Shown here: positions 9,213 to 59,340 of the stretch, in pieces
How the letters are laid out: each line of letters starts with the position of its first letter
How positions within the stretch are numbered: position 1 is the stretch's first letter
Assembly (NCBI GenBank): GCA_009783145.1
Contig: WRHR01000002.1
Coordinates: 34,834-98,833, forward strand
From: Alphaproteobacteria bacterium
GTDB lineage: Bacteria; Pseudomonadota; Alphaproteobacteria; Rs-D84
Direction of reading: 5' to 3'
Length of the DNA: 64,000 nt
Made by a program: the position numbers and the translations under genes
Notes under the pieces: generated by a model
What the model saw: only the letters and a program-made list of their open reading frames with translations
Databases searched by the model: none
What the model was told of the DNA's origin: nothing

Positions 9213-9214
9213 CA

Positions 9215-11356: not shown

Positions 11357-11421
11357 AAAAAACCCCTTCCCTATATTCGTTTTATTATATCATAAAAACT
11401 AACTGAGTGAAAGCGTTATCA

Positions 11422-11508
11422 ATGACTAATGACCAATGACTAATGTTTAATGACCAATATAAGCGCCCATTAGTCATTCGTCATTTATCATTGGTCATTA
11501 GTCATTAA
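11422..11508. repeat. Heptamer-array hairpin element, family B (second copy)
   Basis: caatgactaatgaccaatgactaatg ... cattagtcattcgtcatttatcattggtcattagtcatt. Confidence 0.8.
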
Positions 11509-11536
11509 AAAATCGCCGCGAATACGGCGATTTTAT
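11509..11536 (-). terminator. Intrinsic terminator (aatcgccg-cgaata-cggcgatt + U-tract on minus)
   Basis: Hairpin plus T-run directly after the stop of 11537-11965. Confidence 0.55.
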
Positions 11537-13286: not shown

Positions 13287-13889
13287 TTATGCACTCATAA
13301 TACTATCCACCAATTTATGGATTCCAGCAAGCTTAGACGCCTCATACTCCTTGCCATCCGCATTGCTAAGCCCCCAGCTCCTGGCCGTATCTTGTGCCAA
13401 TTCATACCTTTTCATCATGTCCTCGAAGTTAAACTTTGCTCCATCACTATGGTCATACCCAGGCATTATTTCTTCTAGCTTCTTTTGGCACTGATGTCTT
13501 GTCGTTGGGATATCAGAAGGCGGAACATAATGTGATAACGCCCATGCTTCTATACACGGCGTATTCAATGCTATTTGTACTTTTGGCCTATTGGCAACCG
13601 AATTGCTTTCCTTTGCCTTTTGATATGCCAGTCTTACTCTTTCCGCTTTATCATCGTGATCAAACACGCACCAATATTCTACGCTTTTCTCTATTCGCTT
13701 ATCTTTGACAAAAGATACCATTCCCTCAACAATCTTCAATGGATCCGTATGCTTGTGGGGTTGAATTTGAAGCATACATCTTGGATTTAATTTACTAATC
13801 GCATCCAAATACCTTGGTTCGGAATTCACTCCCTCACAAATCACATATACTGTTTTGGTAATCAAAGGTCTACTTGGCGGGCATCTCAT
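13287..13889 (-). CDS. RloB-like protein (AbiLii-like component)
   Basis: N-terminal VYVICEGVNSEPRYL matches the RloB (vICEGxtEpnYf) signature; 20-bp overlap with the upstream ATPase gene. Confidence 0.6.
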   Translation of the reverse strand: MRCPPSRPLITKTVYVICEGVNSEPRYLDAISKLNPRCMLQIQPHKHTDPLKIVEGMVSFVKDKRIEKSVEYWCVFDHDDKAERVRLAYQKAKESNSVANRPKVQIALNTPCIEAWALSHYVPPSDIPTTRHQCQKKLEEIMPGYDHSDGAKFNFEDMMKRYELAQDTARSWGLSNADGKEYEASKLAGIHKLVDSIMSA

Positions 13890-15192
13890 CCGTATTCTCC
13901 GCAGATTTTACACCATCCAAAAAGAGATGCGCCCCTAAAAAGGGAATTGCACCATATACGCCATTCAGATACCCTCTTTCCACATCTTTGTCTTTGCGGG
14001 GGGCAAAATCTGCCAACGAATATAATTTCGAGGAATGGTCAAAATCTTTTTTTACAAACCAAATTTCATCATCACGCCATATATCCTGAATATCCATTAG
14101 CAGCGTGTTATGCAAAGATACCAATATTTGTGAACCATTTTTATTATCTGCCAATAATTGCTGCAATAAGCGCTTTACAATGAACGGATGCAGAGAGCTA
14201 TCAAACTCATCAATTATCAATAAAGCGCCTTTTTGATAATTTTTAAAGTTATATAACGCCAAAGCAAGATGTATTAGCCTATTCGTCCCGGTAGATAGTT
14301 CTGACAACTCAAAATACTCGTTCTCGACTTTGATTTTCAACTTCTCTCCTTTCGCCTTTCCAGATGCAACATCAAATGTAAAAACATAGTAGTCTTCACC
14401 ATCCATATATGATAGAGCATCGCCGAATTTTACAGGTGTCGTATATTTGGACGGCTTACTCTTTAACAATTCATTTGTTAAATCATCTGAAATTTTTACA
14501 AATTCCGCGCACTGAATACCAACATCGGATTCTTGCAATAACCTATTTAAAAATTCGGGAAAACTACTCTGTGTGTTATAAACATTATAGAATGACGACA
14601 TCTTGACCTTGGTCTTATCGTTGAAAAGCAATATGGCCCCAAAAAATTCATATAAATTTTCTATATGATCTCTATACGACCAATCAATGCTATTGAGGCC
14701 GTCAGTATCTAATTTGCGAATATAAGACATTCGATCCGCAACGGTTTTATTTTCTCTCGACCAATTTCCACCACATTCGACCTTGCCTTTTGAGCGACGA
14801 AATATCAATTCAGTTTGCGAGTCGTCTTTTATCAGTTCAAATTTCTCACTAACAAATTCCGCAGGTCTGATCTTCATTTCATACAAATACTTTTTGTTGC
14901 TCCATATAAAGCTGATTTTAAAAACCGATTCGTTATTTTCGGAAAATCTGAATTGGCTTGCCTTTACATTCAACGAAGAAATATCATCCATTTCTATCAA
15001 CAAACTTAACCAGCTCAATGAATTCATAAAATTTGATTTTCCGCTCGCATTTGCACCATAAATTACTGCTCCTGATAAGTATTCATCTGAGACAATATGG
15101 TCCAAGTGTTGTCTGCTGCCGGTTTTTTCAAAACTAATCTCTTGTTCGGAATCAAACGAGCCAAAATTTGACACGGAATATTTCACAAGCAT
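13870..15192 (-). CDS. AAA_21-type ATPase (AbiLi-like / RloA-like component)
   Basis: Walker A GANASGKSNFMNSL, Walker B LLIIDEFDSSLHP typical of AAA_21. Confidence 0.7.
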   Translation of the reverse strand: MLVKYSVSNFGSFDSEQEISFEKTGSRQHLDHIVSDEYLSGAVIYGANASGKSNFMNSLSWLSLLIEMDDISSLNVKASQFRFSENNESVFKISFIWSNKKYLYEMKIRPAEFVSEKFELIKDDSQTELIFRRSKGKVECGGNWSRENKTVADRMSYIRKLDTDGLNSIDWSYRDHIENLYEFFGAILLFNDKTKVKMSSFYNVYNTQSSFPEFLNRLLQESDVGIQCAEFVKISDDLTNELLKSKPSKYTTPVKFGDALSYMDGEDYYVFTFDVASGKAKGEKLKIKVENEYFELSELSTGTNRLIHLALALYNFKNYQKGALLIIDEFDSSLHPFIVKRLLQQLLADNKNGSQILVSLHNTLLMDIQDIWRDDEIWFVKKDFDHSSKLYSLADFAPRKDKDVERGYLNGVYGAIPFLGAHLFLDGVKSAENTDEMPAK

Positions 15193-19889: not shown

Positions 19890-21585
<1,696 letters not shown>

Positions 21586-21939
21586 TTAGAAAACTTGTTT
21601 GTTTGTCCGTGCACTAAACTAAACTGACATTGAATGTTAGTTCGTTTTACTATTTCGCAAGACAAGTATTTTAACGAGGCCACAAAATTTTGTAACCTAC
21701 TACCTGTCTAGGATATGCACTATGACAATTGTCAAAGTTTGGATTTTCCCAAATTCAACTGTCTGCACATCCCTTCTTTTTATGATTTGTATTTTGCAAC
21801 GCAAAACACCCATCATAAATCTTGATGAGCTGCTTTATTCACAATGTTGCGATTTTTCCTGGGACAACGAATCGTGTTGTTTCCATAAAACCGCAGAATT
21901 TCAGGGGTTGAAGCTTTTGTTCCAACTTGAAAGCCCGCA

Positions 21940-22157: not shown

Positions 22158-23060
22158 TCAAAACCTATACATCAATCCCAGTTTTATCATCGGGAATAAT
22201 TTTAATTTCGCCAGTTCGTCATCGGCCATGCGCAACGCTGCTTTTTTATTGGTGTTAAGCTCGGTTTCTACCGGCGTGCCTTTGATAACCGGATCCCAAT
22301 TATCTCCATCGTCATGGCTGACCCATAAATTATCCAGCGGTATATTCAGCCCCAGTCTCGCAGTCCGGCTGGTAAACACTGCGCCCGCGTCCATATATAT
22401 CTTCACGCCCCACAACAGCCCCAGATCGAAACCGGTTCCCAGATACGGCCCGGAATATTTCCAAGTCATATCCGCGCCGACCTTCAGCTCGGTGCCGCTG
22501 TATCCGTAAAGGGTGTCGTTCAGCTCGAACGTTATCATATCGTCATCTGTGCGCGTCCCCTTGATGCCCGCGCCGGCGCCGATTTTTCCGGTCATATATC
22601 CCCCCGATATGCGCACACCCCCAAGGAACCAAGTATCCCCGAACGGATAGAAATCAACAATCGCGCCGATATGATTTGCTTTCAGATCGATATTGCCTTT
22701 TAGGGATATGTTGTCGTCGATTTCAAAGCCGTCATTGCCGACCGCCGAATCAATCGCCGAATTTATCGTGGATTTGATCGGAGAAGTCGTGGCGAAATCC
22801 AGGCGCAGCCCCAAACGCTTCCACCAGAACGAATCGAAATTTTTATTCGCGTATCCGACAAATCCGTTCAAGCCGGATGTAAAGGACACGCCGAGTCCCA
22901 ACTGCATTCCTTGCGGGAACTCGGTCTTGGGATTCGATGCCACGACCGGCGCCTTGACTTCCGATAAATCGGCTTTTATTTCTTCAAGCGCGCTCTCGTT
23001 CGCGAACGTGGGCAGGACAAACATCGTTGCAAAAATAACCGGCAAAATCTTTTTCATCAT
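22158..23060 (-). CDS. Outer-membrane beta-barrel protein (porin-like), C-terminal ...LMYRF
   Basis: Signal peptide, alternating amphipathic strands, terminal aromatic Phe; paralog of 23539-24819. Confidence 0.6.
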   Translation of the reverse strand: MMKKILPVIFATMFVLPTFANESALEEIKADLSEVKAPVVASNPKTEFPQGMQLGLGVSFTSGLNGFVGYANKNFDSFWWKRLGLRLDFATTSPIKSTINSAIDSAVGNDGFEIDDNISLKGNIDLKANHIGAIVDFYPFGDTWFLGGVRISGGYMTGKIGAGAGIKGTRTDDDMITFELNDTLYGYSGTELKVGADMTWKYSGPYLGTGFDLGLLWGVKIYMDAGAVFTSRTARLGLNIPLDNLWVSHDDGDNWDPVIKGTPVETELNTNKKAALRMADDELAKLKLFPMIKLGLMYRF

Positions 23061-23086
23061 ATGGGGAACTCCTTTTGTACAAAATA

Positions 23087-23347
23087 GGTCCAGAATTGGT
23101 TAAATTCCAGGTCAAGGCGGCAGGGAAATTAAAACAAGAACAAGGACTTTCGCGAAACAAGTATATTATACTTGTGAGCGGAAAGCCGCAGTTATTGGTT
23201 TAATTTGACGCCGTCCCGAAGGATGTGGCTAAAATCCCCCATCGCTTTGTCAAACCGGCTCGTCGTATTATATACGCCTTCGCCGATTTTCCGCGCGCTG
23301 TGCGATTTTATCTCGCACCTTGACCTGGAATTTAACCAATCCTGGAC
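23087..23347. mobile_element. MITE-like element: 261 bp bounded by 31-bp terminal inverted repeats, no ORF
   Basis: ggtccagaattggttaaattccaggtcaagg ... ccttgacctggaatttaaccaatcctggacc (30/31 match). Confidence 0.6.
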
Positions 23348-23430
23348 CTAACTATAACAATCAAAAGGAATGTTTTCAAGCGTATATTACATTAACCGTA
23401 TAACCATATAACCATTAATCACGAATCACT

Positions 23431-23520
23431 TGTCGTTCTAGTATACTAGAACGGCAAGTATAAAATAAAATGTCCATTATAACGGACAACGTTCATTATC
23501 GCGTACGACTTATGATTAGG
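23431..23520. repeat. Composite palindromic element: TTCTAGTATACTAGAA + TGTCCATTATAACGGACA + cgacttatgatta (copy 1)
   Basis: Homologous to 52131-52225. Confidence 0.7.
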
Positions 23521-23538
23521 GTCAGGACTCAATGAAAT

Positions 23539-24819
23539 TCAAAATCTATACATTACCCCCAGGCGCACTATCGGATAGAATTGAAAATCTTTCAGAATGT
23601 TATTGGCATCGCGCACTATATTATGGCGGCCGCGATGGTACTCGTCTATTATGCCCTGCACATCGGAATCCAGCGCGCTGTGCGCGTTCGCAACCGCATC
23701 CTGCACTATATTATTGATAGCGTCGCAATTGCCGCCGCATGCGGCGATACCCGCGCTGTACCAAATTGGCGGAGCGCCGCCTCCTATTACCCATGACGTT
23801 ATGTCGTTCAAAATGACGGTCGGATCTATATTGCCGGCAATCAAGATATTCTGGAACAGGCTGACGTCAGTCCCGTTGAAGTTTCCCCCCGGCGCGGTCA
23901 GGATTTCATCCAGGATGCTGCCGAGAAGCCCCGCGGTCGTCCCCGGTATATCGTTCTTATCAATATTAGTCCAACCGCATTCGAAGCCGTTGCCGATAAC
24001 GTAACAGGCTTGGATTTTATCATAGGGAAGAACTATATCGCTGTCATGCAGCTTGGGCGGATTGGTAAATATCACGCCCGCATCGACAAAGAACTTAAAG
24101 CCGCGAAACACGCCGATGTCCCAGCCAAGCCCTCCGTAAGGCCCGTTGTATTTCCAATTCAATTTTCCGCGGACTTGCGCGCCGCCTTGCAAACGGGTCC
24201 TGATTTCGCCGGCGGCGCCAACATCGATTATGAATCCGCCGGGCGGAGTATCATTCGGCACATTCGCCCGCAGATCGATGTCCAATCTGCCGATATAATA
24301 ACCGCCGGATAGGCGAAATCCGCCCACAACGGCGGTATCTCCAAAAGGATAAAAATCAATCAGCCCGCCGAACCGGTTATCATTTACGGAAAAGACGCCG
24401 TTAACTCCGTCCAGATTCACGTCTGCGCCATGAATTGCTATCGGGTCAAAGGCATCTTCCCATTTATAGTTATATTTCAGCCCCAGAACATTAAGATTGA
24501 AGTCTATGCTGGTCTCGTCATAAACGCGCGCCGAAATCATCTTATTCGTGCCGGTGGCCAAATCGGCGCGGAATCCGAATCGCTTTCCCCAAAAGCCCGG
24601 CGCGTCCTTATTCGCATATCCGACGAACCAGTTCACCGAAGAAAGAGGCCAAAGCGCCAAGGGAGCGCCGATTCCGAACTGCCATCCCGCATACGGTGAC
24701 TTTTGCGGAGCGGATTTGCCGTCTTTCAGAACTTCATCTATAGGCTTCAGATCGGGCGCTTCTGCAAAAGCAGGTATAGCAAATGCAACCGCAAAAATAA
24801 TCGGCAATATTTTTCTCAC
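23539..24819 (-). CDS. Outer-membrane beta-barrel protein paralog, C-terminal ...VMYRF
   Basis: 426 aa; signal peptide MRKILPIIFAVAFAIPAFA; shares N- and C-terminal blocks with 22158-23060. Confidence 0.6.
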   Translation of the reverse strand: MRKILPIIFAVAFAIPAFAEAPDLKPIDEVLKDGKSAPQKSPYAGWQFGIGAPLALWPLSSVNWFVGYANKDAPGFWGKRFGFRADLATGTNKMISARVYDETSIDFNLNVLGLKYNYKWEDAFDPIAIHGADVNLDGVNGVFSVNDNRFGGLIDFYPFGDTAVVGGFRLSGGYYIGRLDIDLRANVPNDTPPGGFIIDVGAAGEIRTRLQGGAQVRGKLNWKYNGPYGGLGWDIGVFRGFKFFVDAGVIFTNPPKLHDSDIVLPYDKIQACYVIGNGFECGWTNIDKNDIPGTTAGLLGSILDEILTAPGGNFNGTDVSLFQNILIAGNIDPTVILNDITSWVIGGGAPPIWYSAGIAACGGNCDAINNIVQDAVANAHSALDSDVQGIIDEYHRGRHNIVRDANNILKDFQFYPIVRLGVMYRF

Positions 24820-25611: not shown

Positions 25612-25613
25612 TA

Positions 25614-25738
25614 ATTAGCGATTAGCAATTATCAATTAGCGATTAAAAATGCAACAATATGAAATGTCCAATATACTGGACAATGTTATTACCAGTTCCC
25701 CAATTGCTAATCGCTAATTGCTAATCGCTAATTCCTTT
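25614..25738. repeat. Heptamer-array hairpin element, family A (second copy) with central TGTCCAATATACTGGACA
   Basis: ttagcgattagcaattatcaattagcgatt ... ttgctaatcgctaattgctaatcgctaatt; shared gcaacaata flank. Confidence 0.85.
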
Positions 25739-27984
25739 ACTGTTTTCGTCTTCGGGTCGTATACCTTTGGGGTGCCGCGATATCCCATCGTAGAATGATG
25801 GCTGGGGATTAGAAATTCCGGCAGAGGCGTGCTTTCGCCCATACTCCTGAACGCCTGCAGCCGCGGGTCGGAATACGCCGGAGTATAATCCGCTTCGATC
25901 GGCCTGTGGTACCAGCCTTGGAATATTACCAGCTCCTTTTTCGCGTCCAGCTTCAGAATATCCATAGTGCTGTAAAGCGGCTTTCTTTCCGTCGTCGTAG
26001 TGTCTTTTCCGTCCGCGCCCTTGGTCTTTTTCTCCTCCACTTTTTCGCCCATCATATCCGAAAATCTTTTGGCGGTATCGGGGTCATTCTGGCGGAAAAC
26101 GATTTTCGCCGCAGTCGTGGAAATTATGGTTGCCGCCGCGTCCGCGCCGTACTTTTCCTGAATCTGGTGAATATCCTGGCCGATGATAAGATAAGACACT
26201 TTCTGTCCTCGGCCGATATCGGGCCCTTGGATAATCGCCTGCATCTTTTGCATTTTGGGCATTTCGTCCAAGACGAACAAGGCGGGGAACGGCCCGACTT
26301 TTTGACCCTTATGCTCGTCGCCGGGCGCGTTCGCAATCAGAAACTTAGACATAAGCTCGATAAATATTGCCGTTATCGGGTTCAAGGCGTCGGCATCGAC
26401 CTGATTGATGGACAGGTATACCGTAACCGGCTTTATTTTTCCATCGCGCGGGTCGATCATACCGCGCAGATCCGCGAAATGAAAATCACTGTGGCTGGTG
26501 CGATTTCGCACGGCGGCGTTTCGGAAAATCCCCAGCCCCGCCAGAACCGTGGACAGGATGGAGCCGCGCTCCTTGTCCGGGGTATTCGCAATCTGCGTAA
26601 GCTCCAAAACCGCGCGATGGCTGTATCCGTACTGCAGCGCTTCGTTCACCGCGTTCAGGAACAAGTCCTTCATGGGATCGGCCATCATCACCATCTGGTC
26701 GCCTTGCTTGCGGCGGTTTTCTATTTCCTCGGCGATCAGCACCTGATTTTTGTTCAGCCAGTCCAGAATCATGGACAAAGACGCCTCTTTCCCGATCCAA
26801 TCGTCCGGAATCTTCGCCCAAGTCCCGATATGGACATAGTTCATGGCATTCAACTGCCCGTTGGCCAAGGCATGCAGCGCGGCATCCGCATTCGGGTCAT
26901 TCATAAGGGTATAATACTCGCCCAGCAATGCGGCGTCTTCGGAATCGAATTGTCCAGATTGCAGGCGCGCGTAAAAATACTCGTCCGCCTTGACCTTGTC
27001 TATCTTGGAAACCATAAAGTTGATAAGACCCGAAAGCGCCGCGCGGCCGGAAATCGTCCAATGGGGGTCGGCGGTAGAGCTTGTCTTGTCCGCAATAAGC
27101 GTGGAGCATATGGAGTCTATGTAAAGGTCGCGCTCTTCGGCCAGAAACGGCACATGCGAAGGCGATAAAGGGTTCCAGGACGGATAATAAATGCCCGCCG
27201 CCGGATCGTCCTGGCCCGCCCAGTTCATGATAAACACCGGGCCTACTTTCTCCGCGCGATACGCGGACGACTGCTGCTTTAATTCCGGCTTCGGGTCGTT
27301 GATAATCATCGAAACGCCGGTGCAATCAAAGATAGTGGGCAAAACGACGCCTTGGGTTTTACCGGTCCCTGGAGGAGCCAAACATAGGGCGGAAAAAGTC
27401 TCCTTCATCATCAGCGGCTTTTTCTTCCAATAGCCCAGAACCATCATAAAACCGTCAAGCAGGCCCATTTTTTTGACATCTTCGTCATTGGCCTTGCGCG
27501 AGGACTCTTCTTTCAGGGTGTCTTTGCCATGTGGGTTGAACTCTTTAAGCAGGGTATCGTCCGCCAGGATGAAAAACACGGCCAGCGGAAGCAGCGGGGC
27601 AAGCGTCGCAATATCGGTCTGGGTGACGGCTCTCATAAGCCAATCCGGGACTTCGGCCAGCACGGACAAGCCGCCGCTGCGCAGCAGGTTTCCGAAATAT
27701 ACGCTGATCCACTTGGCGGCGGCCGGCGACCAGCCATAGCGCCATATATGCTCGATCGGAAACGCCAGAATAAACGCCAGCGCGCAGGACAGCCAGATAA
27801 TAAGCTTGTACCGCATATTCCAGAACAAGCGCGCCAAGGGCGTCCTTTCGTGGTCCTTGTACACGGACGAGTCGAATATCTTCAGCCCCTTGCCTTTGCC
27901 CGAAAACGATAAAAAGTTGAACTTTTCTGCCATTAGGTTTATTATACCAAAAAAATAGGTAATTGATAATGCAAAACTTGCCAA
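25714..27984 (-). CDS. virD4: Type IV secretion coupling protein VirD4/TraG family
   Basis: Two N-terminal TM segments, Walker A LAPPGTGKTQGVVLPT, Walker B FVLDEMP, 756 aa. Confidence 0.8.
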   Translation of the reverse strand: MASFALSITYFFGIINLMAEKFNFLSFSGKGKGLKIFDSSVYKDHERTPLARLFWNMRYKLIIWLSCALAFILAFPIEHIWRYGWSPAAAKWISVYFGNLLRSGGLSVLAEVPDWLMRAVTQTDIATLAPLLPLAVFFILADDTLLKEFNPHGKDTLKEESSRKANDEDVKKMGLLDGFMMVLGYWKKKPLMMKETFSALCLAPPGTGKTQGVVLPTIFDCTGVSMIINDPKPELKQQSSAYRAEKVGPVFIMNWAGQDDPAAGIYYPSWNPLSPSHVPFLAEERDLYIDSICSTLIADKTSSTADPHWTISGRAALSGLINFMVSKIDKVKADEYFYARLQSGQFDSEDAALLGEYYTLMNDPNADAALHALANGQLNAMNYVHIGTWAKIPDDWIGKEASLSMILDWLNKNQVLIAEEIENRRKQGDQMVMMADPMKDLFLNAVNEALQYGYSHRAVLELTQIANTPDKERGSILSTVLAGLGIFRNAAVRNRTSHSDFHFADLRGMIDPRDGKIKPVTVYLSINQVDADALNPITAIFIELMSKFLIANAPGDEHKGQKVGPFPALFVLDEMPKMQKMQAIIQGPDIGRGQKVSYLIIGQDIHQIQEKYGADAAATIISTTAAKIVFRQNDPDTAKRFSDMMGEKVEEKKTKGADGKDTTTTERKPLYSTMDILKLDAKKELVIFQGWYHRPIEADYTPAYSDPRLQAFRSMGESTPLPEFLIPSHHSTMGYRGTPKVYDPKTKTVKELAISN

Positions 27985-28742
27985 GGATTTTTATTAACGA
28001 GCCTTTGGAATCCGGAAAGCAAATCCCGATTTCCAAAGACCAGCTGCACTACCTGCAGAAAGTAATGCGGACGGAAAAATGTCTGGTTTTCAATGCCGGA
28101 AAAGAATTCAATGCGCAGGTCGCCGGCTCGCAGCTTTCGGTTCTGGATTTGACCGAGCATCCTGACCCGTCCAATAATTTGATCTTTGCATTTGCACCGA
28201 TAAAGCAGTCAAGAATGGAAGAAATGCTGAATGCGGCAACTCAAATGGGCGTGGCGAGGTTACAGCCGGTTATCACAGAGCGCACCACCGAGAGATTTCC
28301 AAAATGGGAAAGAATTAGAAAAATCATAATCGAAGCATCGGAACAATCGGGTCGCAATTCCGTCCCCGAACTCCTGCCGCCGATTAAATTTTCGGAATTC
28401 GTAGGGGCGAATGAAAATTCGCCCGGCAATTTAATTTTCGCAGACGAGCGGTTCGCGCATGAGGTGTTCCCCTCCTGTGGAGGGGTGGATGCGAGCGAAG
28501 TGAGCAGACGGGGTGGTTCTTGTAATATGCGAGAATTAAACGAACCACCCCGCCCTGCGGGCACCCCTCCACAGGAGGGGAACCGCGACCCCACCACCGT
28601 GCTCATTGGCCCCGAAGGAGGATTCTCCCCGGCGGAATTCTCGGCATTGGACGCATCCGATGCAATAGGAATCAGCCTTGGAAAAACAATCCTGCGCGCT
28701 GAAACCGCTGCAATCGCCGCATTGGCGAAAATTATTGATTAA
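27963..28742 (+). CDS. rsmE: 16S rRNA m3U1498 methyltransferase RsmE carrying an in-frame palindromic-element insertion
   Basis: N-terminal PUA-like and C-terminal SPOUT (LIGPEGGFSPAE) blocks; the only housekeeping gene on the plus strand. Confidence 0.75.
   Translation: MIMQNLPRIFINEPLESGKQIPISKDQLHYLQKVMRTEKCLVFNAGKEFNAQVAGSQLSVLDLTEHPDPSNNLIFAFAPIKQSRMEEMLNAATQMGVARLQPVITERTTERFPKWERIRKIIIEASEQSGRNSVPELLPPIKFSEFVGANENSPGNLIFADERFAHEVFPSCGGVDASEVSRRGGSCNMRELNEPPRPAGTPPQEGNRDPTTVLIGPEGGFSPAEFSALDASDAIGISLGKTILRAETAAIAALAKIID
28466..28583. mobile_element. RPE-like palindromic element (GTTCCCCTCCTGTGGAGGGGTGG ... CACCCCTCCACAGGAGGGGAAC) in-frame within rsmE
   Basis: 118-bp nested inverted repeat; copies at 31143-31252 and 35708-35834. 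Confidence 0.85.
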
Positions 28743-30403: not shown

Positions 30404-30525
30404 AAGTAGGAAGTAGGAGGTAGGAAGTAGGAAATAAAAAGCAACAATAAACGATGTCCATTATAATGGACAACGATTACCTTACTCTATCACTTCCTAC
30501 TTCCTACCTCCTACTTCCTACTTCT
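30404..30525. repeat. Heptamer-array hairpin element, family D: (ggaagta)xn - TGTCCATTATAATGGACA - (tacttcc)xn
   Basis: taagtaggaagtaggaggtaggaagtaggaaat...cttcctacttcctacctcctacttcctacttc; palindrome at 30455-30472. Confidence 0.85.
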
Positions 30526-31062: not shown

Positions 31063-31142
31063 ATATCAACCTTTTGATTGGGGCATTATAACGGAAAACT
31101 TCTGCAATACAAATGAAATATGGCAGAAGAAGCGGGGTCGCA

Positions 31143-31252
31143 GTTCCCCTCCTGTGGAGGGGTGGCCGCAGGCCGGGGTGGTTCTTGTAATCTGCGAAAA
31201 TTAAACGAACCACCCCGTCGGCTACGCCGACACCCCTCCACAGGAGGGGAAC
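31143..31252. mobile_element. RPE-like palindromic element, intergenic copy
   Basis: cagttcccctcctgtggaggggtgg...ggggtggttcttgtaatctgcgaaaattaaacgaaccacccc...cacccctccacaggaggggaac. Confidence 0.85.
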
Positions 31253-31267
31253 ACCACGGCGCAAATT

Positions 31268-33004: not shown

Positions 33005-33838
33005 TTATAGCACATTAGCGCGCGCTAGTTCAACAAACTTTTCCATAGGCAATTCTTCCGCGCGCTCTTGCCCGGTTAATCCGAATTGCGACCAATCGAC
33101 GCCGGGCATAATGCTGCGTATCATTTTCCTCCGCTGGCCGAAAAGCTTCGCGGTCAGCTTTTCAACGGATGACAGCTGAATTGTTTTTTTATCTTTCGGG
33201 ATTATCTGCACAACCGCGCTTTGGACTTTCGGCGCGGGGAAAAAAGCGGTATTCGGAATATTGAATAAAATCTTCGCGTCCGCAACCAAAGCGGTAAGAA
33301 CGCTCAGCCGGCCGTATTGCTTATCGCCGACGCGCGCGACGATTCTATCCGCCACTTCGCGCTGGAACATTAAGGTCATAGAGTGGAGAGTGGAGAGTGA
33401 AGAGTGTAGTTGGTGCAGCCACTGAATTAAAAGTTCAGTTCCGATATTATACGGAAGGTTGGAACAAATTGCTAAATCATCTGCACTCTTCACTCTCCAC
33501 TCTTCACTCTTGAAATATTTCAATGCGTCGCCATAAATAACTTCCAGGCGGCCGTCTGCGGCGTTCGAAATTTTTTTCAAAATCAGCCCGGTCGCACGGT
33601 CTTTTTCAATCGCGATAACTCGCGCGGCGCCGCACTCCAGCAAAGCGCGCGTCAGGCCGCCCGGCCCTGGGCCGACTTCGACAACCGTAGCGCCCTGTAT
33701 GCCCGGCACGCTGCGCGCTATTTTCCGCGTGAGGTTCAGATCGAACAGGAAATTCTGGCCCAGCTGCTTTTTGGGTTCCAGGCCCGCATCGCGCATCATT
33801 TCTGCAACTGGGGGAAGATTTAATAATTTTTCATTCAT
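33005..33838 (-). CDS. rsmA: 16S rRNA (A1518/A1519) dimethyltransferase
   Basis: SAM motifs VVEVGPGPGGLT, NLPYNI; contains a 28-bp inverted repeat pair in-frame. Confidence 0.85.
   Translation of the reverse strand: MNEKLLNLPPVAEMMRDAGLEPKKQLGQNFLFDLNLTRKIARSVPGIQGATVVEVGPGPGGLTRALLECGAARVIAIEKDRATGLILKKISNAADGRLEVIYGDALKYFKSEEWRVKSADDLAICSNLPYNIGTELLIQWLHQLHSSLSTLHSMTLMFQREVADRIVARVGDKQYGRLSVLTALVADAKILFNIPNTAFFPAPKVQSAVVQIIPKDKKTIQLSSVEKLTAKLFGQRRKMIRSIMPGVDWSQFGLTGQERAEELPMEKFVELARANVL
33379..33512. repeat. Inverted heptamer arrays (gagtgaa/gagtgga ... cactctt/cactctc) inside the rsmA coding sequence
   Basis: atagagtggagagtggagagtgaagagtgtag and ctgcactcttcactctccactcttcactcttg, 71 bp apart, bracketing the NLPYNI codons. 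Confidence 0.85.
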
Positions 33839-34464
33839 ATCTGCTTTCTGCCGCCGAACGCAATGCTCAGCGTTCCGTCGTCGATGTAATCCAGGTCGCC
33901 GCCCAAAGGCACGCCGGATGCCAGTTCTGTAAATTGTAGGGGCGAAATATTTTTCGCCCCAGGGGCGAATGATAATTCGCCCCTACAAACCTGTGCGACA
34001 TAATGCTGGGTTGTTTTTCCTTCCACCGTATTGGGCAGGGCAAAAATGATTTCGACTATTTTTTCATCATCGATACGCGCGGGCAGACTTGCGATATTCA
34101 AATCTTCGGGAGTGGTTCCCGCGGCGCCGGACAGCAAGCCGCCGATGATATGATAGCGCCCCTTGAACACGCCGGATTTTTCCAAAGTCCAAACATCGCC
34201 CAAATCGCGGACCAGACATAACTGGCCGTTAGCGCGCGCGGGATCGCGGCAGAATTCGCAATTATCACAATCGGTCAAACACCCGCATACGGGACAAGGA
34301 CGTACAGATTCGGCAGTATCATTCAGCGCTGCGGCCAGGGCAGCGGCCCTGCCTGTTTTGTCCTGCAACAGGGCCAAGACTATGCGCTGCGCCGCCCGCC
34401 CTCCGACCCTGGGCAGCTTTGCGAATTGTTTAATAAGCTTTTCGATTTTCTGATTCATCGACAA
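33835..34464 (-). CDS. recR: Recombination protein RecR
   Basis: HhH, C4 zinc finger CPVCGCLTDCDNCEFC, Toprim; carries a 53-bp in-frame double hairpin. Confidence 0.85.
   Translation of the reverse strand: MSMNQKIEKLIKQFAKLPRVGGRAAQRIVLALLQDKTGRAAALAAALNDTAESVRPCPVCGCLTDCDNCEFCRDPARANGQLCLVRDLGDVWTLEKSGVFKGRYHIIGGLLSGAAGTTPEDLNIASLPARIDDEKIVEIIFALPNTVEGKTTQHYVAQVCRGELSFAPGAKNISPLQFTELASGVPLGGDLDYIDDGTLSIAFGGRKQI
33935..33987. repeat. Tandem double hairpin (ggggcgaa-N-ttcgcccc)x2 framed by tgtagg...cctaca, in-frame inside recR
   Basis: tgtaggggcgaaatatttttcgccccaggggcgaatgataattcgcccctaca encodes CRGELSFAPGAKNISPL on minus. Confidence 0.8.
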
Positions 34465-35692: not shown

Positions 35693-35707
35693 TAAAAGCG
35701 GGGTGGT

Positions 35708-35834
35708 GTTCCCCTCCTGTGGAGGGGTCGGCGAAGCCGGGGGTGGTTCGGGTAATGTTCGTATGTTGTGTATAATTTCGTGCATTACATAAACCACCAC
35801 GGCCCTTTGGGCCACCCCTCCACAGGAGGGGAAC
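35708..35834. mobile_element. RPE-like palindromic element, intergenic copy 3
   Basis: gttcccctcctgtggaggggtcgg...ggggtggttcgg...accaccacgg...cacccctccacaggaggggaac. Confidence 0.85.
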
Positions 35835-35863
35835 ACCACCACACGAATTTCAGAATATTTTAA

Positions 35864-36976
35864 TCAATGAAACACAAAGCAATCTATCTGCTGCGTTTTG
35901 GCCGCCTGGCATGCGCTCTGCGCCGCGCTTTCCGACAGGCCGTTCGCACGCACGCGGAACATTCCGCTGGGGGAAGGCTCAACCACCGCTGACAGTCCTG
36001 TAATATTACGAACGCGCGTCACTTGCGATTCTGCGGCCGCCCGTGATCCGAAAGCACCAAATTGAACGCCAGTCCCGCCCGCGTTTTGCACGGGAACAAT
36101 TGCCGCGGGCTTGCTTAACGGCTTCGTTACGGCCACGGGCGGCGGCGCATAATTATTCTGCACCGCAACCGGCGCCGCGCCAGTTCCTAGTATTGTAAAT
36201 CCTTTATCCAGCATCCTTGTCGAAACCGCGGCGCGAATATCCTTGGTTTGCGCGCCCAGAACAACGCTCATCACGCGCCGACCGTCGCGTTTGGCTGTTG
36301 CCACCAGCGAATATTTGGACTTGTTCGTATATCCTGTCTTCATACCGTCGCATCCCGGATACGACGCCAGCAGCCGGTTCCCGTTGGTATAAGTCTGCCC
36401 GTTATAAGTCCAGCTTTGAATCCCGAAATATTTCCAATATTGCGGGAAATGCTTGTAAACCGCCATAGACAGCAATGCGATATCGCGCGCGCTTGACAGG
36501 TGGTCGTCGTCCGGCAATCCGGACGAGTTCTCGAAATTAGTCTTGGAAAGCCCGATTTCCGTCGCGACCTGTGTCATCAATGACGCGAAGTTTCCCTCCT
36601 TTCCACCCTTCAGGTTTTCCGCCAAAACCCGCGCGACATCATTCGCGCTGTGCACCGCGACGGCTTTTATCGCGTCTTCAACCCTTATCTTCGACCCCGC
36701 GGCCAGGCCCAGTTTTACAGGCAAAGCATTCGCCGCGCTTTGCGAAACGATTAAGTGGTCGTCCAGATTAAGACGCTTGTGCTCCAACGCGTCGAATGTC
36801 AGATACAGCGTCATGATTTTCGTAAGAGATGCCGGATAATTCAGGTCGTTCGCGTTCTCGGAATAAAGCACTTTGCCCGTATCCAAGTCCGCGACAAGCA
36901 CGGCGTTATAGTCGGCTGCAAACGCCGATACCGAAAGAATAAAGAATAAAGAATAAAGAATAAAGAATCTCTTCAT
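35864..36976 (-). CDS. dacA: D-alanyl-D-alanine carboxypeptidase (PBP5/6 class) with C-terminal SPOR domain
   Basis: SxxK (ASLTK), SxN (SAND), KTG motifs; C-terminal VQFGAF...SPOR-like; signal peptide MKRFFILYSLFFIL from a repeat arm. Confidence 0.8.
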   Translation of the reverse strand: MKRFFILYSLFFILSVSAFAADYNAVLVADLDTGKVLYSENANDLNYPASLTKIMTLYLTFDALEHKRLNLDDHLIVSQSAANALPVKLGLAAGSKIRVEDAIKAVAVHSANDVARVLAENLKGGKEGNFASLMTQVATEIGLSKTNFENSSGLPDDDHLSSARDIALLSMAVYKHFPQYWKYFGIQSWTYNGQTYTNGNRLLASYPGCDGMKTGYTNKSKYSLVATAKRDGRRVMSVVLGAQTKDIRAAVSTRMLDKGFTILGTGAAPVAVQNNYAPPPVAVTKPLSKPAAIVPVQNAGGTGVQFGAFGSRAAAESQVTRVRNITGLSAVVEPSPSGMFRVRANGLSESAAQSACQAAKTQQIDCFVFH

Positions 36977-37082
36977 AGCATGAAAGAGTACAAAATTTTC
37001 ATATAAAAGGTCAATTAATAAAAGTACCGCGCAACCTAGATTACGCGGCCCTAATTTATTCTTTATTCTCTATTCTTTATTC
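36937..37082. repeat. Heptamer-array hairpin element, family E: (aagaata)x3 - spacer - (tattctt)x3; left arm codes the dacA signal peptide, right arm abuts the pyk stop
   Basis: gaaagaataaagaataaagaataaagaat ... ttattctttattctctattctttattcttta. Confidence 0.8.
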
Positions 37083-37083
37083 T

Positions 37084-38472
37084 TTAATCCAAATCTCTCA
37101 ACGAAATTTTATCCCCTTCGACTATTACCAGCTTTCCGCGCGTGACGCCAAAGCGACGCGCCGCCTCGGACGCGTCCTTTTGTCCGAACATCTGCTCGTT
37201 AAAAATCGGATAGACCCCGCGCGAAAGGCACAACTGATTCGCATCTATCGCATCGTTGCAGACCGCGATTATCGGCATATCGGGTTTCCGACAGGAAACA
37301 GCCGTCGCAATTTCAGTCCCCGCGTCAAACACCACGATCGCCGCGGCTTTGTTCAAATGAGCCATCGACGCGACGCTGCGCGACCAGTCGTTTTCGGGCA
37401 AGTTCTCGATTCGCGTCCAATCCTGTCCGTTCTCATAAACGTCCCCGTCGGCGTTGGTCACGATTTTCGACATAGTATCGATCACGTTTATGGGATTGTC
37501 GCCAATGGTCGTTTCTTCGCTGGTCATAACGCAGTCCGCGCGCAAATAAGACGCCAGCGCGACGTCGGAAATTTCCGCGCGCAAGGGGAACTCGCTGTGA
37601 ACCATGCTGCCCAGCATCTGCGTTGCGACGATGATCGGCTTGTTCATCTTGCGGCACATGCGGATGCTTTCGCGCTGCAGCGCGGGAAGCTTTTCAAAAG
37701 GTATTTCCACGGCCAAATCCCCGCGCGCGAACATAATAGCGTCGGAAATCTGAATGATTTCTTCCAGCCGTTCCAACGCCTGGGGCCGTTCTATTTTCGA
37801 AATGATTTTAATAGGCTGACTGGAACGAGCCGTGATAAAATCGCGGGCCTCGGCCACGTCTTCGGGCCGCTGCACGAAAGAAATCGCAACCCAATCGGGG
37901 TTCTTGGTCAGCGCGTATTCCAAATCCGTACGGTCTTTTGGCGTCAGCACCGAAGTTTCTATATCGGTATCGGGAATATTGAACCCGCGGCGCGACCAGA
38001 TTTCGTCGCCGCGCTTTACTTTTGTCGTCACGGAGCAGAGCCTGGATTCAACCGTGCAATTGTTATTCAGAACTTCCAGCTCTATCTTTCCATCATTCAA
38101 TAAAACGCGGTCGCCGACTTTCAAGGACTTCAAGACATCGTTATCCGGCAGGCAGACGCGGGTTTCATCGCCGCGAGCAGGATTATTGTCCAGAACGAAT
38201 TCCTGACCGACTTTCAAAGGATAGTGGTTTTCGGTTTTAAAGTCGCCTATGCGGTGCTTTGGCCCCTGCAAGTCCGCGATGATCGCAATCGGACGGCCCA
38301 GTTCTTCGGATATCTGTCGTATCAAGTCAATCTTTTGCCCCTGGACATCGCCGGTGTCATGCGAAAAATTCAGGCGGCAGGCATTCACGCCCGCATCAAC
38401 CATCGACTTCAAAGTCTTGTAATCCTGGCTGTTCGGTCCGATGGACGCGATTATTTTAGTGAGTTTGGTCAT
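37084..38472 (-). CDS. pyk: Pyruvate kinase
   Basis: MTKLTKIIASIGP..., conserved K+/Mg sites, 462 aa. Confidence 0.85.
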   Translation of the reverse strand: MTKLTKIIASIGPNSQDYKTLKSMVDAGVNACRLNFSHDTGDVQGQKIDLIRQISEELGRPIAIIADLQGPKHRIGDFKTENHYPLKVGQEFVLDNNPARGDETRVCLPDNDVLKSLKVGDRVLLNDGKIELEVLNNNCTVESRLCSVTTKVKRGDEIWSRRGFNIPDTDIETSVLTPKDRTDLEYALTKNPDWVAISFVQRPEDVAEARDFITARSSQPIKIISKIERPQALERLEEIIQISDAIMFARGDLAVEIPFEKLPALQRESIRMCRKMNKPIIVATQMLGSMVHSEFPLRAEISDVALASYLRADCVMTSEETTIGDNPINVIDTMSKIVTNADGDVYENGQDWTRIENLPENDWSRSVASMAHLNKAAAIVVFDAGTEIATAVSCRKPDMPIIAVCNDAIDANQLCLSRGVYPIFNEQMFGQKDASEAARRFGVTRGKLVIVEGDKISLRDLD

Positions 38473-38802: not shown

Positions 38803-38839
38803 ATCGCTTTCGCGATTTATAAACCGAGAGCAGAGTAGC

Positions 38840-38935
38840 GCGCGCTTCGCGCGCAGAGTAGAAGAGTAGGAGATTATTAGATACTCTCTAACTCTTTTAC
38901 TCTGCGCGCGAAGCGAGCGTTACTCTCTTACTCTT
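38840..38935. repeat. Heptamer/octamer-array hairpin element, family C (copy 2) with GC hairpins gcgcgcgcttcgcgcgc
   Basis: cagagtagaagagtaggag ... tactctctaactcttttactctgcgcgcgaagcgagcgttactctcttactctt. Confidence 0.8.
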
Positions 38936-49466: not shown

Positions 49467-49590
49467 AGGTAGGAGGTAGGAAGTTGGAGGTAGGAGGTAA
49501 GAGAGTAAAAGTTTTTTCTTTTAATTTATAGAATAAATTCTTAATCACCAACTTCCTACCTCCTACTTCCTACTTTCTACTTTTGTCCCT
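49467..49590. repeat. Heptamer-array hairpin element, family D with central ttggtgattaagaatttat core (inverted relative to the 53330-53462 copy)
   Basis: taggtaggaggtaggaagttggaggtaggaggtaagagagtaaaag ... accaacttcctacctcctacttcctactttctac. Confidence 0.8.
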
Positions 49591-52231: not shown

Positions 52232-53311
52232 TTACGATTGCTTCAGGATTTCTTCAGCGATGTTAGCAACGGCATTGTTTTCAATCTTCGCCTTTGCCGC
52301 CATCTTTTTCAGGCGCGCCCCATTGCTAAACAATTCCTCCAGCGTTGCGGATAGCCACCTTGAAGTAAATTTGCTCTGCGGGATTGCAATGCCGCCGCCT
52401 TGCGAAGCAAAAACTTCCGCATTCGCCGCCTGGTCGGGGTTTATCCCCAACGGGACCAGAATCGCCGGACGGCCAACGGTCTGCAATTCCGCGACCGTGC
52501 TTGCGCCGCTGCGCCCTATCACCAAGTCCGCCGCCGCCACTTCCGATGCCATATCATGAATGAACGACAGCACGTTCGCCTTCACGCTGTTGCCGGCATA
52601 GAACCTTTGCAAGCGCGCGACGTTTTCCGGCCGGGTCTGATGCACTATGAACAGCTTCTTTACGATGGATGACGGAAGAAGGATGATGGACGACGGAACC
52701 ACGTCGTCCAAAATCTGCGCCCCTAACGAACCACCGGTGACAAGAAGACGGATGATGGATGATGGATGATGGATGATGGATGACATAAATTCTTTACGAA
52801 CAGGTAATCCTGTATAAACAACTTTCAACTTTCCATCATCCGTCATCCGTCTTCCATCATCCATTCCCTCCACCTTTGGAAAACTTGTCATCAAAGTATT
52901 TACCCAGCGCAGGGCGAATTTATTCGCGCGACCAATTGCCGCGTTCTGCTCGTGCAATAATGTCGGGATTTTCCAAACGCGCGCCGCCAAAATTGCAGGA
53001 ACGGACGCATAGCCGCCGAATGCCACAACTCTGTCCGGTCGGAAAACCATAAAGCGCAGCGTCAGAGCAACCGCCGAAAAGCCGATCTTCATCAATGCGA
53101 AGACTTGCTGCAACTTTCCCTTGGCGCCGACGCCGGACGCCCAAACCCAAGCGATTCCCGCGCGCGGAGGCTTATTCTTTTTCACCATATCCATAACGCG
53201 CGAATCGGTCGAGATTATCACGCGATTATGGCGCCGCACCAATTCTTCGGCAACGACCAGCGCTGGAAAAACATGCCCGCCGGTTCCCCCGGTCGCAATC
53301 CATATCTTCAT
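52232..53311 (-). CDS. murG: UDP-GlcNAc:undecaprenyl-PP-MurNAc-pentapeptide GlcNAc transferase
   Basis: GGTGGHVFPAL N-terminus, C-domain LLVTGGSLGA; linker holds an inverted (ggatgat) array element. Confidence 0.85.
   Translation of the reverse strand: MKIWIATGGTGGHVFPALVVAEELVRRHNRVIISTDSRVMDMVKKNKPPRAGIAWVWASGVGAKGKLQQVFALMKIGFSAVALTLRFMVFRPDRVVAFGGYASVPAILAARVWKIPTLLHEQNAAIGRANKFALRWVNTLMTSFPKVEGMDDGRRMTDDGKLKVVYTGLPVRKEFMSSIIHHPSSIIRLLVTGGSLGAQILDDVVPSSIILLPSSIVKKLFIVHQTRPENVARLQRFYAGNSVKANVLSFIHDMASEVAAADLVIGRSGASTVAELQTVGRPAILVPLGINPDQAANAEVFASQGGGIAIPQSKFTSRWLSATLEELFSNGARLKKMAAKAKIENNAVANIAEEILKQS
52748..52867. repeat. Inverted heptamer arrays (ggatgat)x5 ... (atcatcc)x4 inside the murG inter-domain linker, in-frame
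   Basis: gacggatgatggatgatggatgatggatgatggatgacat ... ccatcatccgtcatccgtcttccatcatccattcc; codes MSSIIHHPSSII and GMDDGRRMTDDG around the conserved GLPVR block. Confidence 0.85.
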
Positions 53312-53329: not shown

Positions 53330-53462
53330 TATAAAGTAGGAGGTAGGAAGTAGGAAGTTGGTGATTAAGAATTTATATCTCGAAATAAAAGCTCTTACTC
53401 TCTTATTTCCTACCTCCTACCTCCTACCTCCTACTTCCTACTTCCTACTTTCTACTTCCACT
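53330..53462. repeat. Heptamer-array hairpin element, family D between ftsW and murG (right arm overlaps the ftsW 3' end)
   Basis: agtaggaggtaggaagtaggaagttggtgattaagaatttat ... ttcctacctcctacctcctacctcctacttcctacttcctactttctacttcc. Confidence 0.8.
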
Positions 53463-55754: not shown

Positions 55755-56486
55755 TTATATCCCCAAAATCGTCCAAAGCAATCTCCGCGCGTCGATATAC
55801 GATTTATACAGCAATTCGCCGACCCTCTTCCACCGCGCCACCAGATATTTTTTCTTTTCGGCATAATTGATGCTGCTGGCCACGCCCTTGCGTTCCCAAG
55901 CGATGTTAGGGAATACCGACCGGCCGCGGACGCGGTACTTCCAATATTTTATGTACTCGTGGTCATGCGGGACGAACATAGGCAGCATTTTGGCGACATA
56001 TCTTTTCGCCGCATCGCGCTTTATCAGATAAGCCCCGGATTTGTTCTGATGAAACGCGTTCCTTACCAGATGATATTTTCCGCCAAGCAACTTGCGCATA
56101 CGGATTTTTCCGCCTCCATGTGTGCCGTATAGCTTCACGATATCCCAATCGTCCTTTGATATTATGTCGTCCAAGACCTGCTTGAAATCCACAGCGAACT
56201 CCATATCGTCTTCCAGTATCAGGCCGATGTCGGCGCCCGTTTCGACGAATTTCTCCAATGCCTCGTAATGCGAGATATAGCACCCGATTTCATTGTTCAT
56301 CACGATTCTGCCGTGGACGAAAGTATGAAGGCCGCGATTGACCTCCCTGCTTGTAAATGTCCGTATCTTGCCGTCGGTGCCCGAAACGCGGACAAAATCC
56401 AAGCCGACAGCTTTCAGGTTTTTTTCGGTTTGTTCCATGCGCTCGGGTGCGCGGTCCAAATTTATTACGAGCGTTTTCATTTTCAT
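55755..56486 (-). CDS. Glycosyltransferase family 25 (LPS core beta-glycosyltransferase-like)
   Basis: MKMKTLVINLDRAPERMEQTEKNL... typical GT25 N-terminus. Confidence 0.65.
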   Translation of the reverse strand: MKMKTLVINLDRAPERMEQTEKNLKAVGLDFVRVSGTDGKIRTFTSREVNRGLHTFVHGRIVMNNEIGCYISHYEALEKFVETGADIGLILEDDMEFAVDFKQVLDDIISKDDWDIVKLYGTHGGGKIRMRKLLGGKYHLVRNAFHQNKSGAYLIKRDAAKRYVAKMLPMFVPHDHEYIKYWKYRVRGRSVFPNIAWERKGVASSINYAEKKKYLVARWKRVGELLYKSYIDARRLLWTILGI

Positions 56487-57793: not shown

Positions 57794-57797
57794 TCTA

Positions 57798-59261: not shown

Positions 59262-59340
59262 GATTTACGATTTACGATTTACGATTTACGATTTAGGGAG
59301 TCAAATCGTAATTCGCAAATCGTAAATTATTTTTTCTCCT
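59262..59340. repeat. Family F heptamer-array hairpin filling the gap between virB6 paralogs C and B
   Basis: atgatttacgatttacgatttacgatttagggagtcaaatcgtaattcgcaaatcgtaaatt. Confidence 0.85.

Follow-up and report, generated by a model that had tools for sequence, protein, structure and literature searches.

An in-frame, GTAG-tagged REP dimer in the recR gene of an uncultured alphaproteobacterium, a probable REPIN-like insertion

How two GC-rich hairpins came to lie within the reading frame of recR, and whether they represent a mobile sequence, was the question raised by one locus in a 64-kb stretch of DNA from an uncultured alphaproteobacterium (contig WRHR01000002.1; the whole stretch is referred to here as the window). 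The 53 bases flagged by the first-pass annotation (window positions 33935-33987) were tgtaggggcgaaatatttttcgccccaggggcgaatgataattcgcccctaca, letter for letter, and had been described there as two tandem perfect hairpins. The pairing of GGGGCGAA with TTCGCCCC was confirmed; the arrangement was not, since the two units do not form a plain tandem doublet but are inverted REPs, placed head to head, each with a GTAG head (Table 1). On the forward strand, positions 33936-33986 read GTAG GGGCGAA atattt TTCGCCC cag GGGCGAA tgataa TTCGCCC CTAC. The coding strand of recR reads GTAG-GGGCGAA-ttatca-TTCGCCC-ct-GGGGCGAA-aaatat-TTCGCCC-CTAC, and unit B is the first REP encountered along the gene. Each unit is 24-25 nt long and consists of a stem of 8-9 bp (GGGGCGAA[A/T]) and a loop of 4-6 nt; the GTAG tetranucleotide lies directly outside each stem, unpaired, and the spacer between the two inverted units is 1-3 nt.

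Table 1. Coordinates of the recR element, its component units, the surrounding genes and the second REP copy in the window
Feature	Position	Strand	Details
REP head-to-head dimer (REPIN-like)	33936..33986	.	51 nt = 17 codons; core of the flagged 33935-33987
REP unit A	33936..33960	+	GTAG head 33936-33939; stem GGGGCGAA(A), 8-9 bp; AT-rich loop
REP unit B	33962..33986	-	GTAG head 33986-33983; stem GGGGCGAAT; loop tatc
recR	33835..34458	-	207 aa from ATG at 34458; TTG start at 34464 gives 209 aa
ksgA/rsmA (RrnaAD)	33005..33838	-	start overlaps recR stop
Second REP copy, single unit	28401..28424	+	GTAG GGGCGAAT gaaa ATTCGCCC; in rsmE-like RNA methyltransferase ORF 27963-28742

The hairpin pattern GGGGCGAA-N(3-12)-TTCGCCCC occurred in the window only at 33939-33960 and 33962-33983, and 100 dinucleotide-preserving shuffles gave a mean of 0.00 and a maximum of 0 occurrences. 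The predicted fold of the element region as single-stranded DNA had a free energy of -23.9 kcal/mol, compared with -7.3 ± 2.0 kcal/mol for shuffled sequences (z = -8.2), and that of the sense RNA was -41 kcal/mol (z = -7.5). The minimum-free-energy fold was one long hairpin in which an outer stem joined units A and B and left the GTAG heads outside.

Other identities for the palindrome were also considered. A terminator and promoter scan was negative at the element: both strands of 33935-33987 lacked a terminator-like site, with no T-run tail, and the interpretation of the element as an intrinsic terminator was dropped for this reason. An Rfam scan of the region from 27.5 to 36.5 kb (E≤1) yielded no match at the gathering threshold; the matches obtained were to generic hairpins and miRNA-precursor models, all of them sub-threshold (for example, 24 bits against a threshold of 114 bits), and assignment to a known RNA family was dropped accordingly. 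An artefact or chimera of a single assembly is unlikely because the sequence recurs in four other contigs. Identical DNA (100%, over 3.5-20 kb) was found in L001 and L251-L253, which are filed under other sample or run records and may not be independent read sets, and there was no presence/absence polymorphism among the five contigs of the strain, which, being identical, are uninformative about recent mobility.

The product of the recR open reading frame was 100% identical to P0001 (MCL1891855.1), which bears the name RecR and comes from a MAG labelled "Alphaproteobacteria bacterium". Pfam analysis identified the RecR_HhH, RecR_ZnF, Toprim_4 (residues 81-161) and RecR_C (residues 184-207) domains, and in the interval between the last two of these the REP dimer contributes residues ~162-179 (CRGELSFAPGAKNISPLQ). 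The first-pass annotation had correctly placed the segment in frame within RecR, coding CRGELSFAPGAKNISPL(Q); the location that it gave, the Toprim region, was refined to the C-terminal edge of that domain, before RecR_C. Its description of recR as an essential gene was too strong. The gene is a conserved repair gene, and is non-essential in model bacteria. The reading frame, every conserved RecR motif and every invariant column were intact, and comparison with orthologs gave an amino-acid identity of 0.81-0.89 versus a third-codon-position identity of 0.46-0.53. As judged from these identities, recR is under purifying selection and its third positions are near saturation. In two AlphaFold2 models, both of low confidence (pLDDT 63 and 69), the insert was predicted to be coil, with a long helix on one side and a short strand on the other. 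Because the start of ksgA overlaps the stop of recR, the two genes were taken to share a co-transcribed context. The ksgA gene has its own intragenic inverted heptamer-repeat arms (33380-33510), and the murG gene of the window also carries repeats. Heptamer tandem repeats occur throughout the window, and the repeat load of this lineage is unusual.

The loop that carries the insert was scored as the stretch bounded by the motifs QHY and F[ST]ELASG, which could be done in 118 RecR orthologs. Its length was 10-13 aa in 109 of them (mode 12), compared to 22 aa in the window RecR. These lengths bear out the earlier reading of the segment as an insertion, as opposed to a palindrome at a site where the orthologs are equally long. 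Consistent with this result, a HMMER alignment with the solved RecR structures 5z2v and 3vdp placed an 11-aa gap exactly opposite ELSFAPGAKNISP, and the corresponding sequence of the element-free ortholog in L002 was not predicted to form a hairpin (-2.1 kcal/mol). The nearest relatives of the window RecR (P0003, P0004 and P0008) also are without the element. When proteins were searched again with only the insert-containing C-terminal 69 aa as the query, 56 RecR fragments were returned, and a REP-coded loop was present in none of them; in the approximately 50 additional fragments, the scorable loops were 11-13 aa with one of 16 aa. The net gain in the window RecR was ~10-12 aa (30-36 nt), which is less than the full 53 nt, and ~6-8 native loop codons were missing or overwritten.

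This loop is not occupied by REPs alone. In other orthologs, unrelated GC-rich palindromes or heptamer repeats in frame are found both here and in a second loop, which belongs to the zinc finger; in L127, L129 and L131, heptamer tandem repeats fill these RecR loops. Insertions into RecR proteins of this clade recur at these two sites, and on the evidence of the alignments the loop site is permissive in general.

The anatomy of the element was compared with that of published repeat families. GTAG REPs have an unpaired terminal GTAG, a stem of 5-13 bp, a loop of 2-20 nt and a total length of 20-40 bp; they are present in tens to thousands of copies per genome, mostly extragenic and downstream of ORFs, with a RAYT gene in the same genome (PMC3733652). 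In their head-to-head dimers the GTAG tags face outwards, and the two units are 1-5 or 20-100 bp apart (Di Nocera et al. 2013, PMC3733652). A REPIN consists of two inverted REPs that can fold as one long hairpin, and it is the doublet, not the singlet, that replicates, as a genomic population of near-identical doublets (Bertels & Rainey 2011, PMC3116915). REPs and their head-to-head dimers, or REPINs, are mobilised by RAYT, also known as TnpA-REP (PMC3733652; Nunvar et al. 2010, PMC2817692; Bertels & Rainey 2011, PMC3116915). The window element shares the GTAG head, the GC-rich stem of 8-9 bp, the short loop, the head-to-head arrangement and the 1-3 nt spacer. It also resembles these elements in being part of a dispersed family, in lying in frame in a DNA-repair gene, as already described for such REPs, and in belonging to a class found in or near RAYT-like genes of other genomes. 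There are also differences. Both window loci are intragenic, although GTAG REPs within genes, most of them dimers that code for 20-30 aa, have been known since 2013 (PMC3733652), and the location is thus compatible with membership of the group; in addition, the recR element takes the place of some native loop sequence and is not a pure addition. On its sequence features, the recR element is a GTAG-tagged REP in the form of a head-to-head dimer, equivalent to a REPIN; it represents a known kind of insertion and implies no new mechanism. Intragenic REPs are over-represented in replication and repair genes (uvrABCD, recBCD, polA and dnaE2; PMC3733652), and neither recR nor this stem sequence had a match in the published lists of REP-tagged genes or the supplementary tables of that paper.

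In-frame palindromic repeats in alphaproteobacterial housekeeping genes are also familiar from the Rickettsia palindromic elements (RPEs), which Ogata et al. reportedly described in 2000 under the title 'Selfish DNA in protein-coding genes of Rickettsia'. RPEs resemble the recR element in this respect and in being translated as extra surface segments. As with RPEs, several genes of one region are affected here: recR and rsmE, together with the other repeats in ksgA and murG. The comparison was made by size and tag, and on size RPE-1 (~100-150 bp) differs from the 51 bp element described here. RPE-4 and RPE-6 of Rickettsia have been classed as CGTC-tagged REPs (PMC3733652), whereas the tag here is GTAG and the host is an uncultured alphaproteobacterium, not Rickettsia.

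The window contained three REP units of this class at two loci, both of them intragenic. The second locus is a single unit, GTAGGGGCGAATGAAAATTCGCCC, in the rsmE-like gene, where it is read in frame as VGANENSP; an ortholog is 6 aa shorter at that point. There was no other doublet of the recR-element sequence in the 64-kb window, this single unit being the only further copy. The rsmE copy was identical at 30 of 30 nt to the start of a recR insert in a different organism (L003), a match that takes in the loop and 6 nt past the hairpin. In the related alphaproteobacterial contigs L129 and L142 there were 3-6 units per 11-19 kb, which included intergenic head-to-head dimers with spacers of 1-2 nt (L129, 13123-13170; L142, 735-786 and 5639-5687) as well as single REP units inside long ORFs. 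When the class GTAGGGGCGAA...TTCGCCC was scanned for in a one-genome-per-species set and in JGI metagenomes, at least ~120 loci were obtained from each; among the matches listed were loci from Desulfobacterota, Cyanobacteria, Chloroflexota, Bacteroidota, Clostridia and others, and many of the listed loci were single GTAG...CTAC hairpins or spaced dimers. Judged by these sequence matches, the recR unit belongs to a dispersed repeat family, and we infer from this membership that the recR copy itself is mobile. The original proposal of a mobile-hairpin insertion is supported by the second in-frame copy, by near-identical units at the same recR site elsewhere and by the presence of the class in many genomes.

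RAYTs are usually single-copy genes, and for that reason the lack of one in a window of 64 kb says little. No Y1_Tnp domain was detected by Pfam in the 54 ORFs of the window, tblastn searches of the window with ten RAYT/TIRYT sequences (Additional file 5 of PMC3733652) gave no match, and no RAYT family was listed in ~70 kb of related contigs. When ~240 listed REP-anchored loci from other taxa were searched by tblastn, six RAYT-like genes were found (L014, L069, L147, L157, L192 and L209). Four of the six were run through Pfam and all four matched Y1_Tnp; for the three of these that were run against NCBIfam, the best match was NF047646, "REP-associated tyrosine transposase" (E ~1e-15, below the equivalog cut-off). 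A GTAGGGGCGAA-type REP was located inside the transposase reading frame at five of the six loci. At L209, related-variant REPs were found just downstream of the RAYT-like gene, with the queried REP ~6.5 kb away. As far as these loci indicate, the REP class is RAYT-associated at the class level, and we infer the same link for the genome studied here.

Taken with the loop lengths, these observations indicate that the recR element is probably a GTAG-REP head-to-head dimer, a REPIN-like non-autonomous mobile element that has lodged in frame in RecR. It would occupy the turn that follows the last helix of Toprim and precedes the strand leading into the RecR C-terminal domain. A RAYT encoded elsewhere in the genome would excise or copy REP single strands and integrate them as ssDNA, and a copy would survive if the loop that it entered was permissive and its frame was one of the two without a stop, the third frame reading G-TAG, a stop. 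The insert would then be translated as a passenger peptide without a function of its own, in a loop that tolerates the extra residues. After insertion, small indels may have trimmed and re-phased the unit, with a T gained ahead of the GTAG head and with both the spacer and some codons of the native loop being lost.

Three other RecR orthologs had a REP at the same codon, in the form of a single unit (L126), an adjacent dimer (L004) and a spaced dimer (L003). The single unit of L126, ATAGGGGCGAATTATCATTCGCCC, gives a loop of 14 aa and is identical to window unit B at 23 of 24 nt; the window differs from L126 by exactly 24 nt. In L004 the stems are GGGCGCAT and GGGCGGAT and the loop is 22 aa; these stems have a different sequence from those of the other carriers yet pair perfectly, and they match a REP subfamily that is found between genes in relatives. 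The dimer of L003, the insert that begins with the 30 nt of the window rsmE copy, has a 19-nt spacer and a loop of 27 aa, and a dimer of this spaced type, its spacer nearly the same, is also present at L205, an unrelated locus from a metagenome. In all four carriers the REP head is placed exactly 12 nt after the QHY codons, on top of the conserved I/V-G codons of the native sequence, and the right end of the element is directly next to the Phe codon. The net gains are +2, +10, +10 and +15 aa, with ~6-8 native codons missing. Plain cut-and-paste insertion does not predict the fixed 12 nt and the missing 6-8 native codons. The REP identities of 23/24 and 30/30 nt were far higher than the third-position identity between the same recR genes. 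REP units that are so much better conserved than the genes around them fit a templated or mobile source.

The placement of the REP head and of the first stem bases, which coincide with the conserved native I/V-G codons, can also be read as evidence that the palindrome arose in place. Under such a scheme a native half-stem in the I/V-G-A-x-N codons (for example, ATA GGG GCG AAT) would have been extended by fold-back template switching or slippage and then by a local duplication of 23-24 nt, with no mobile element involved. The small steps between orthologs would suit this scheme, in that the single hairpin of L126 is only 2 aa above the modal loop and the window equals L126 plus exactly 24 nt; the lineage is also prone to local repeats, as seen in the heptamers of the L127, L129 and L131 loops and across the window. 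Local events of this kind do not, however, account for the 30/30 nt identity between the rsmE copy of the window and the recR copy of a different organism, for the identical 24-mer class in many genomes and phyla, in or near RAYT-like genes, or for the recurrence of the L003 spaced dimer at L205. Furthermore, the inverted layout with GTAG outermost is that of a canonical REP dimer and not of a direct duplication. Origin in place was considered very improbable on this evidence.

Both stop-free REP frames are in use among the recR carriers: the window reads TGT AGG GGC, while L003, L004 and L126 read GTA GGG GCG. The encoded insert peptides differ completely (CRGELSFAP / GAKNISPL, VGANENSPG, GANYHSPMQ and AHIMRPDNGRMISAP), and it is because they differ entirely between carriers that the insert peptide was interpreted as a passenger. 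An alternative is that the inserted peptide has been co-opted and alters RecR, through its ring or its RecO or RecF contacts, with a resulting shift in recombination or mutation rates. Altered function was the speculation of Di Nocera et al. for REP-tagged repair proteins (PMC3733652), and both the over-representation of REP insertions in replication and repair genes and the two recurrent insertion sites in RecR of this clade are compatible with it. The protein sequence of the insert is, however, not conserved, the peptides being unlike between carriers and even between frames of the same REP; the predicted structure of the insert as coil, at low to moderate confidence, also argues against it. 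Co-option was judged highly unlikely.

It was also considered that the hairpin pair is kept as a cis-acting nucleic-acid structure in the recR-ksgA operon, such as a protective or RNase-processing stem-loop of the mRNA, a translational pause or a gyrase- or IHF-type binding site, with the peptide being incidental. The stability of the predicted sense RNA fold is in keeping with such a role, as are the perfect stems in four orthologs that are near synonymous saturation, including the diverged but fully paired stems of L004; REPs elsewhere have been reported as mRNA stabilisers and protein-binding sites (PMC3733652). More than 95% of the orthologs, however, are without the structure, P0003, P0004 and P0008 among them. 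Where it is present its form varies between single, adjacent double and spaced double, and the unrelated palindromes and heptamers in the same loop of other orthologs suggest that the site is permissive, not that the structure is required. Neither a T-run tail nor an Rfam family match was found, and the stems of L004 are better read as a different REP subfamily than as compensatory evolution. Maintenance as a cis structure was regarded as unlikely.

The number of insertions that gave rise to the four carriers was addressed separately. Their identical boundaries suggest one ancestral event. In a neighbour-joining tree of loop-masked RecR (185 columns, 100 bootstraps) the four carriers were never monophyletic, and no alternative node exceeded 44%. 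A single ancestral event is argued against by this lack of monophyly, although the nodes are weak, by the absence of the element from the nearest relatives and by REPs that are near-identical despite synonymous saturation; a single protein tree of 185 columns cannot separate one insertion from several. It is possible, if doubtful, that either REPs have been captured repeatedly and with nucleotide precision at one recR codon in separate lineages, by insertion 3' to a native RTAG-like tetranucleotide, or an ancient REP has been kept perfect by conversion from the genomic pool.

The repeated-capture alternative has a parallel among known transposases. RAYTs are Y1/HUH enzymes of the IS200/IS605 family. 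The target of elements such as IS608 and ISDra2 in this family is a specific tetra- or pentanucleotide, recognised via the hairpin foot of the element itself, and insertion takes place on its 3' side. By analogy, such target choice would explain recurrence at one native RTAG-like site; unlike these elements, the recR element contains no transposase gene. If one of the two alternatives were true, either REP/RAYT integration would select a native RTAG-like tetranucleotide in the IS200/IS605 manner, or conversion would maintain an old copy. The series of no element, single unit, adjacent dimer and spaced dimer would then provide a natural system in which to follow REPIN integration, decay and renewal, of which we know of no direct in vivo demonstration.

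With this locus, recR and an uncultured alphaproteobacterial lineage join the repair genes that carry in-frame GTAG REPs, and the recR case is in line with the preference for replication and repair genes that had already been noted for such insertions, and lends it support. The peptides that these REPs encode (VGANxxSPL, GRKIFRPY and CRGExxFAP) inflate protein length and can mislead alignment, the assignment of domain boundaries and gene calling in MAGs. Since different states of the element are found at one codon across orthologs, the locus may be used to test REP and REPIN target choice and persistence.

In the RecR proteins of this clade, two recurrent insertion sites were found, a loop and the zinc finger, as seen in the orthologs from loci L127, L129/L130, L131, L004 and L005. 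Besides REPs (GTAG-headed repetitive palindromes), these sites carried in-frame heptamer tandem repeats (CCAGCCA x3, GGCCAGC x3 and CGAATCA x5). A GTGG-headed palindrome family was common to the zinc-finger site of the L004 protein, where it encodes SRLIKGDLG, and the loop of the L005 protein, where the peptide is TRLSKGDLG. The zinc finger of L127 RecR contained a G/C-run palindrome (-99 kcal/mol), which accounts for a gain of approximately 40 aa.

Other coding sequences of the window also contained repeats. Two inverted heptamer arms of the AGAGTGG type flanked the conserved NLPY motif of ksgA/rsmA on both sides, with approximately 5-6 aa gained per arm compared to orthologs; in the L004 ortholog the same two sites were occupied by different inserts. 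The murG inverted repeat, with GGATGAT heptamer arms, lay at about aa 150-187, between the two glycosyltransferase-28 domains. In the rsmE-like gene, one copy of a further palindromic repeat family, GGTG(G)TGTTCCCCTCCTGTGGAGGGG..., followed the REP immediately and in frame, a gain of approximately 27 aa. This copy (28463-28592) and that at 31134-31255 were about 81% identical across 130 bp; two contigs that are 100% identical to window sequence (L252 and L253) both ended within the latter copy.

The 16S rRNA gene was 1697 nt in length, compared to 1533 nt for the model. Perfect palindromes and AGAGTAA heptamer arms were present in its 5' domain, especially at 21205-21513, and therefore hairpin elements appear to have been inserted in this gene as intervening sequences. 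A 23S_rRNA_IVP domain was encoded elsewhere in the window.

Inverted repeats of 80-150 bp were observed in nearly all of the spacers that separate same-strand genes. Their arms consisted of tandem heptamers (AATTAGC, AAGTAGG, AGAGTAG, AAAGAAT, ATTTACG and others), several of which contained GTAG. The elements at 119-236 and 30404-30523 had a common central core, CAACAATAAnCnnTGTCCATTA/TAATGGACAA, and different heptamer arms; a GTAG-GCGCGCG REP was embedded in the element at 38832-38926. To our knowledge, no family of such heptamer-armed design has been described.

A low-GC (0.37) stretch adjoining the rRNA operon contained a gene pair, one member for an RloB-like protein and the other for an AAA_21/AbiEii-type ATPase; the pair resembles a defence or toxin-antitoxin module and was apparently acquired. 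Several long ORFs of the window (277-986 aa) had no Pfam match, including three consecutive ORFs and a group of five at 56.5-64 kb.

Coordinates of repeats and genes in the window and in REP-anchored loci (L-numbers)
Sequence	Position	Strand	Feature
Window	119-236		intergenic heptamer-armed inverted repeat
Window	1025-1121		same
Window	2531-2628		same
Window	11416-11511		same
Window	25613-25733		same
Window	30404-30523		same
Window	36934-37085		same
Window	38832-38926		same
Window	49469-49580		same
Window	53336-53427		same
Window	59257-59333		same
Window	60585-60663		same
Window	28463-28592		GGTG(G)-type repeat
Window	31134-31255		GGTG(G)-type repeat
Window	35702-35840		GGTG(G)-type repeat
Window	33005-33838	minus	ksgA/rsmA
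Window	33380-33510		AGAGTGG-type arms
Window	52232-53311	minus	murG
Window	52750-52862		murG inverted repeat
Window	19890-21586	minus	16S rRNA
Window	2632-3456		ORF, 23S_rRNA_IVP domain
Window	13287-15192	minus	RloB-like/AAA_21 pair
Window	25714-27984		VirD4/TraG-type coupling protein
Window	5555-11356		three ORFs without Pfam match
Window	22158-24819		ORFs without Pfam match
Window	56483-63974		ORFs without Pfam match
L069	308-901		RAYT-like gene, internal REP
L147	60-830		RAYT-like gene, internal REP
L157	575-1213		RAYT-like gene, internal REP
L192	433-987		RAYT-like gene, internal REP
L014	3366-3965		RAYT-like gene, internal REP

In unrelated bacteria, GTAGGGGCGAA-type REPs were found inside the reading frames of genes resembling REP-associated tyrosine transposases (RAYT; Y1_Tnp / NF047646-like), after the HUH motif and before the C-terminal tyrosine region (for example, ...VGAKDFSPL...). 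These REPs thus sit within the very gene presumed to encode their transposase. Among the matches listed (L006-L125 and L132-L250), the 24-mer class GTAGGGGCGAA(N4-8)TTCGCCC was near-identical across many phyla, with copies in Geomonas, Cyanobacteria, Chloroflexota, Bacteroidota, Clostridia, Desulfobacterota and candidate phyla. Since REP/RAYT co-evolution is usually described as lineage-specific, such cross-phylum conservation of a REP sequence is unusual.
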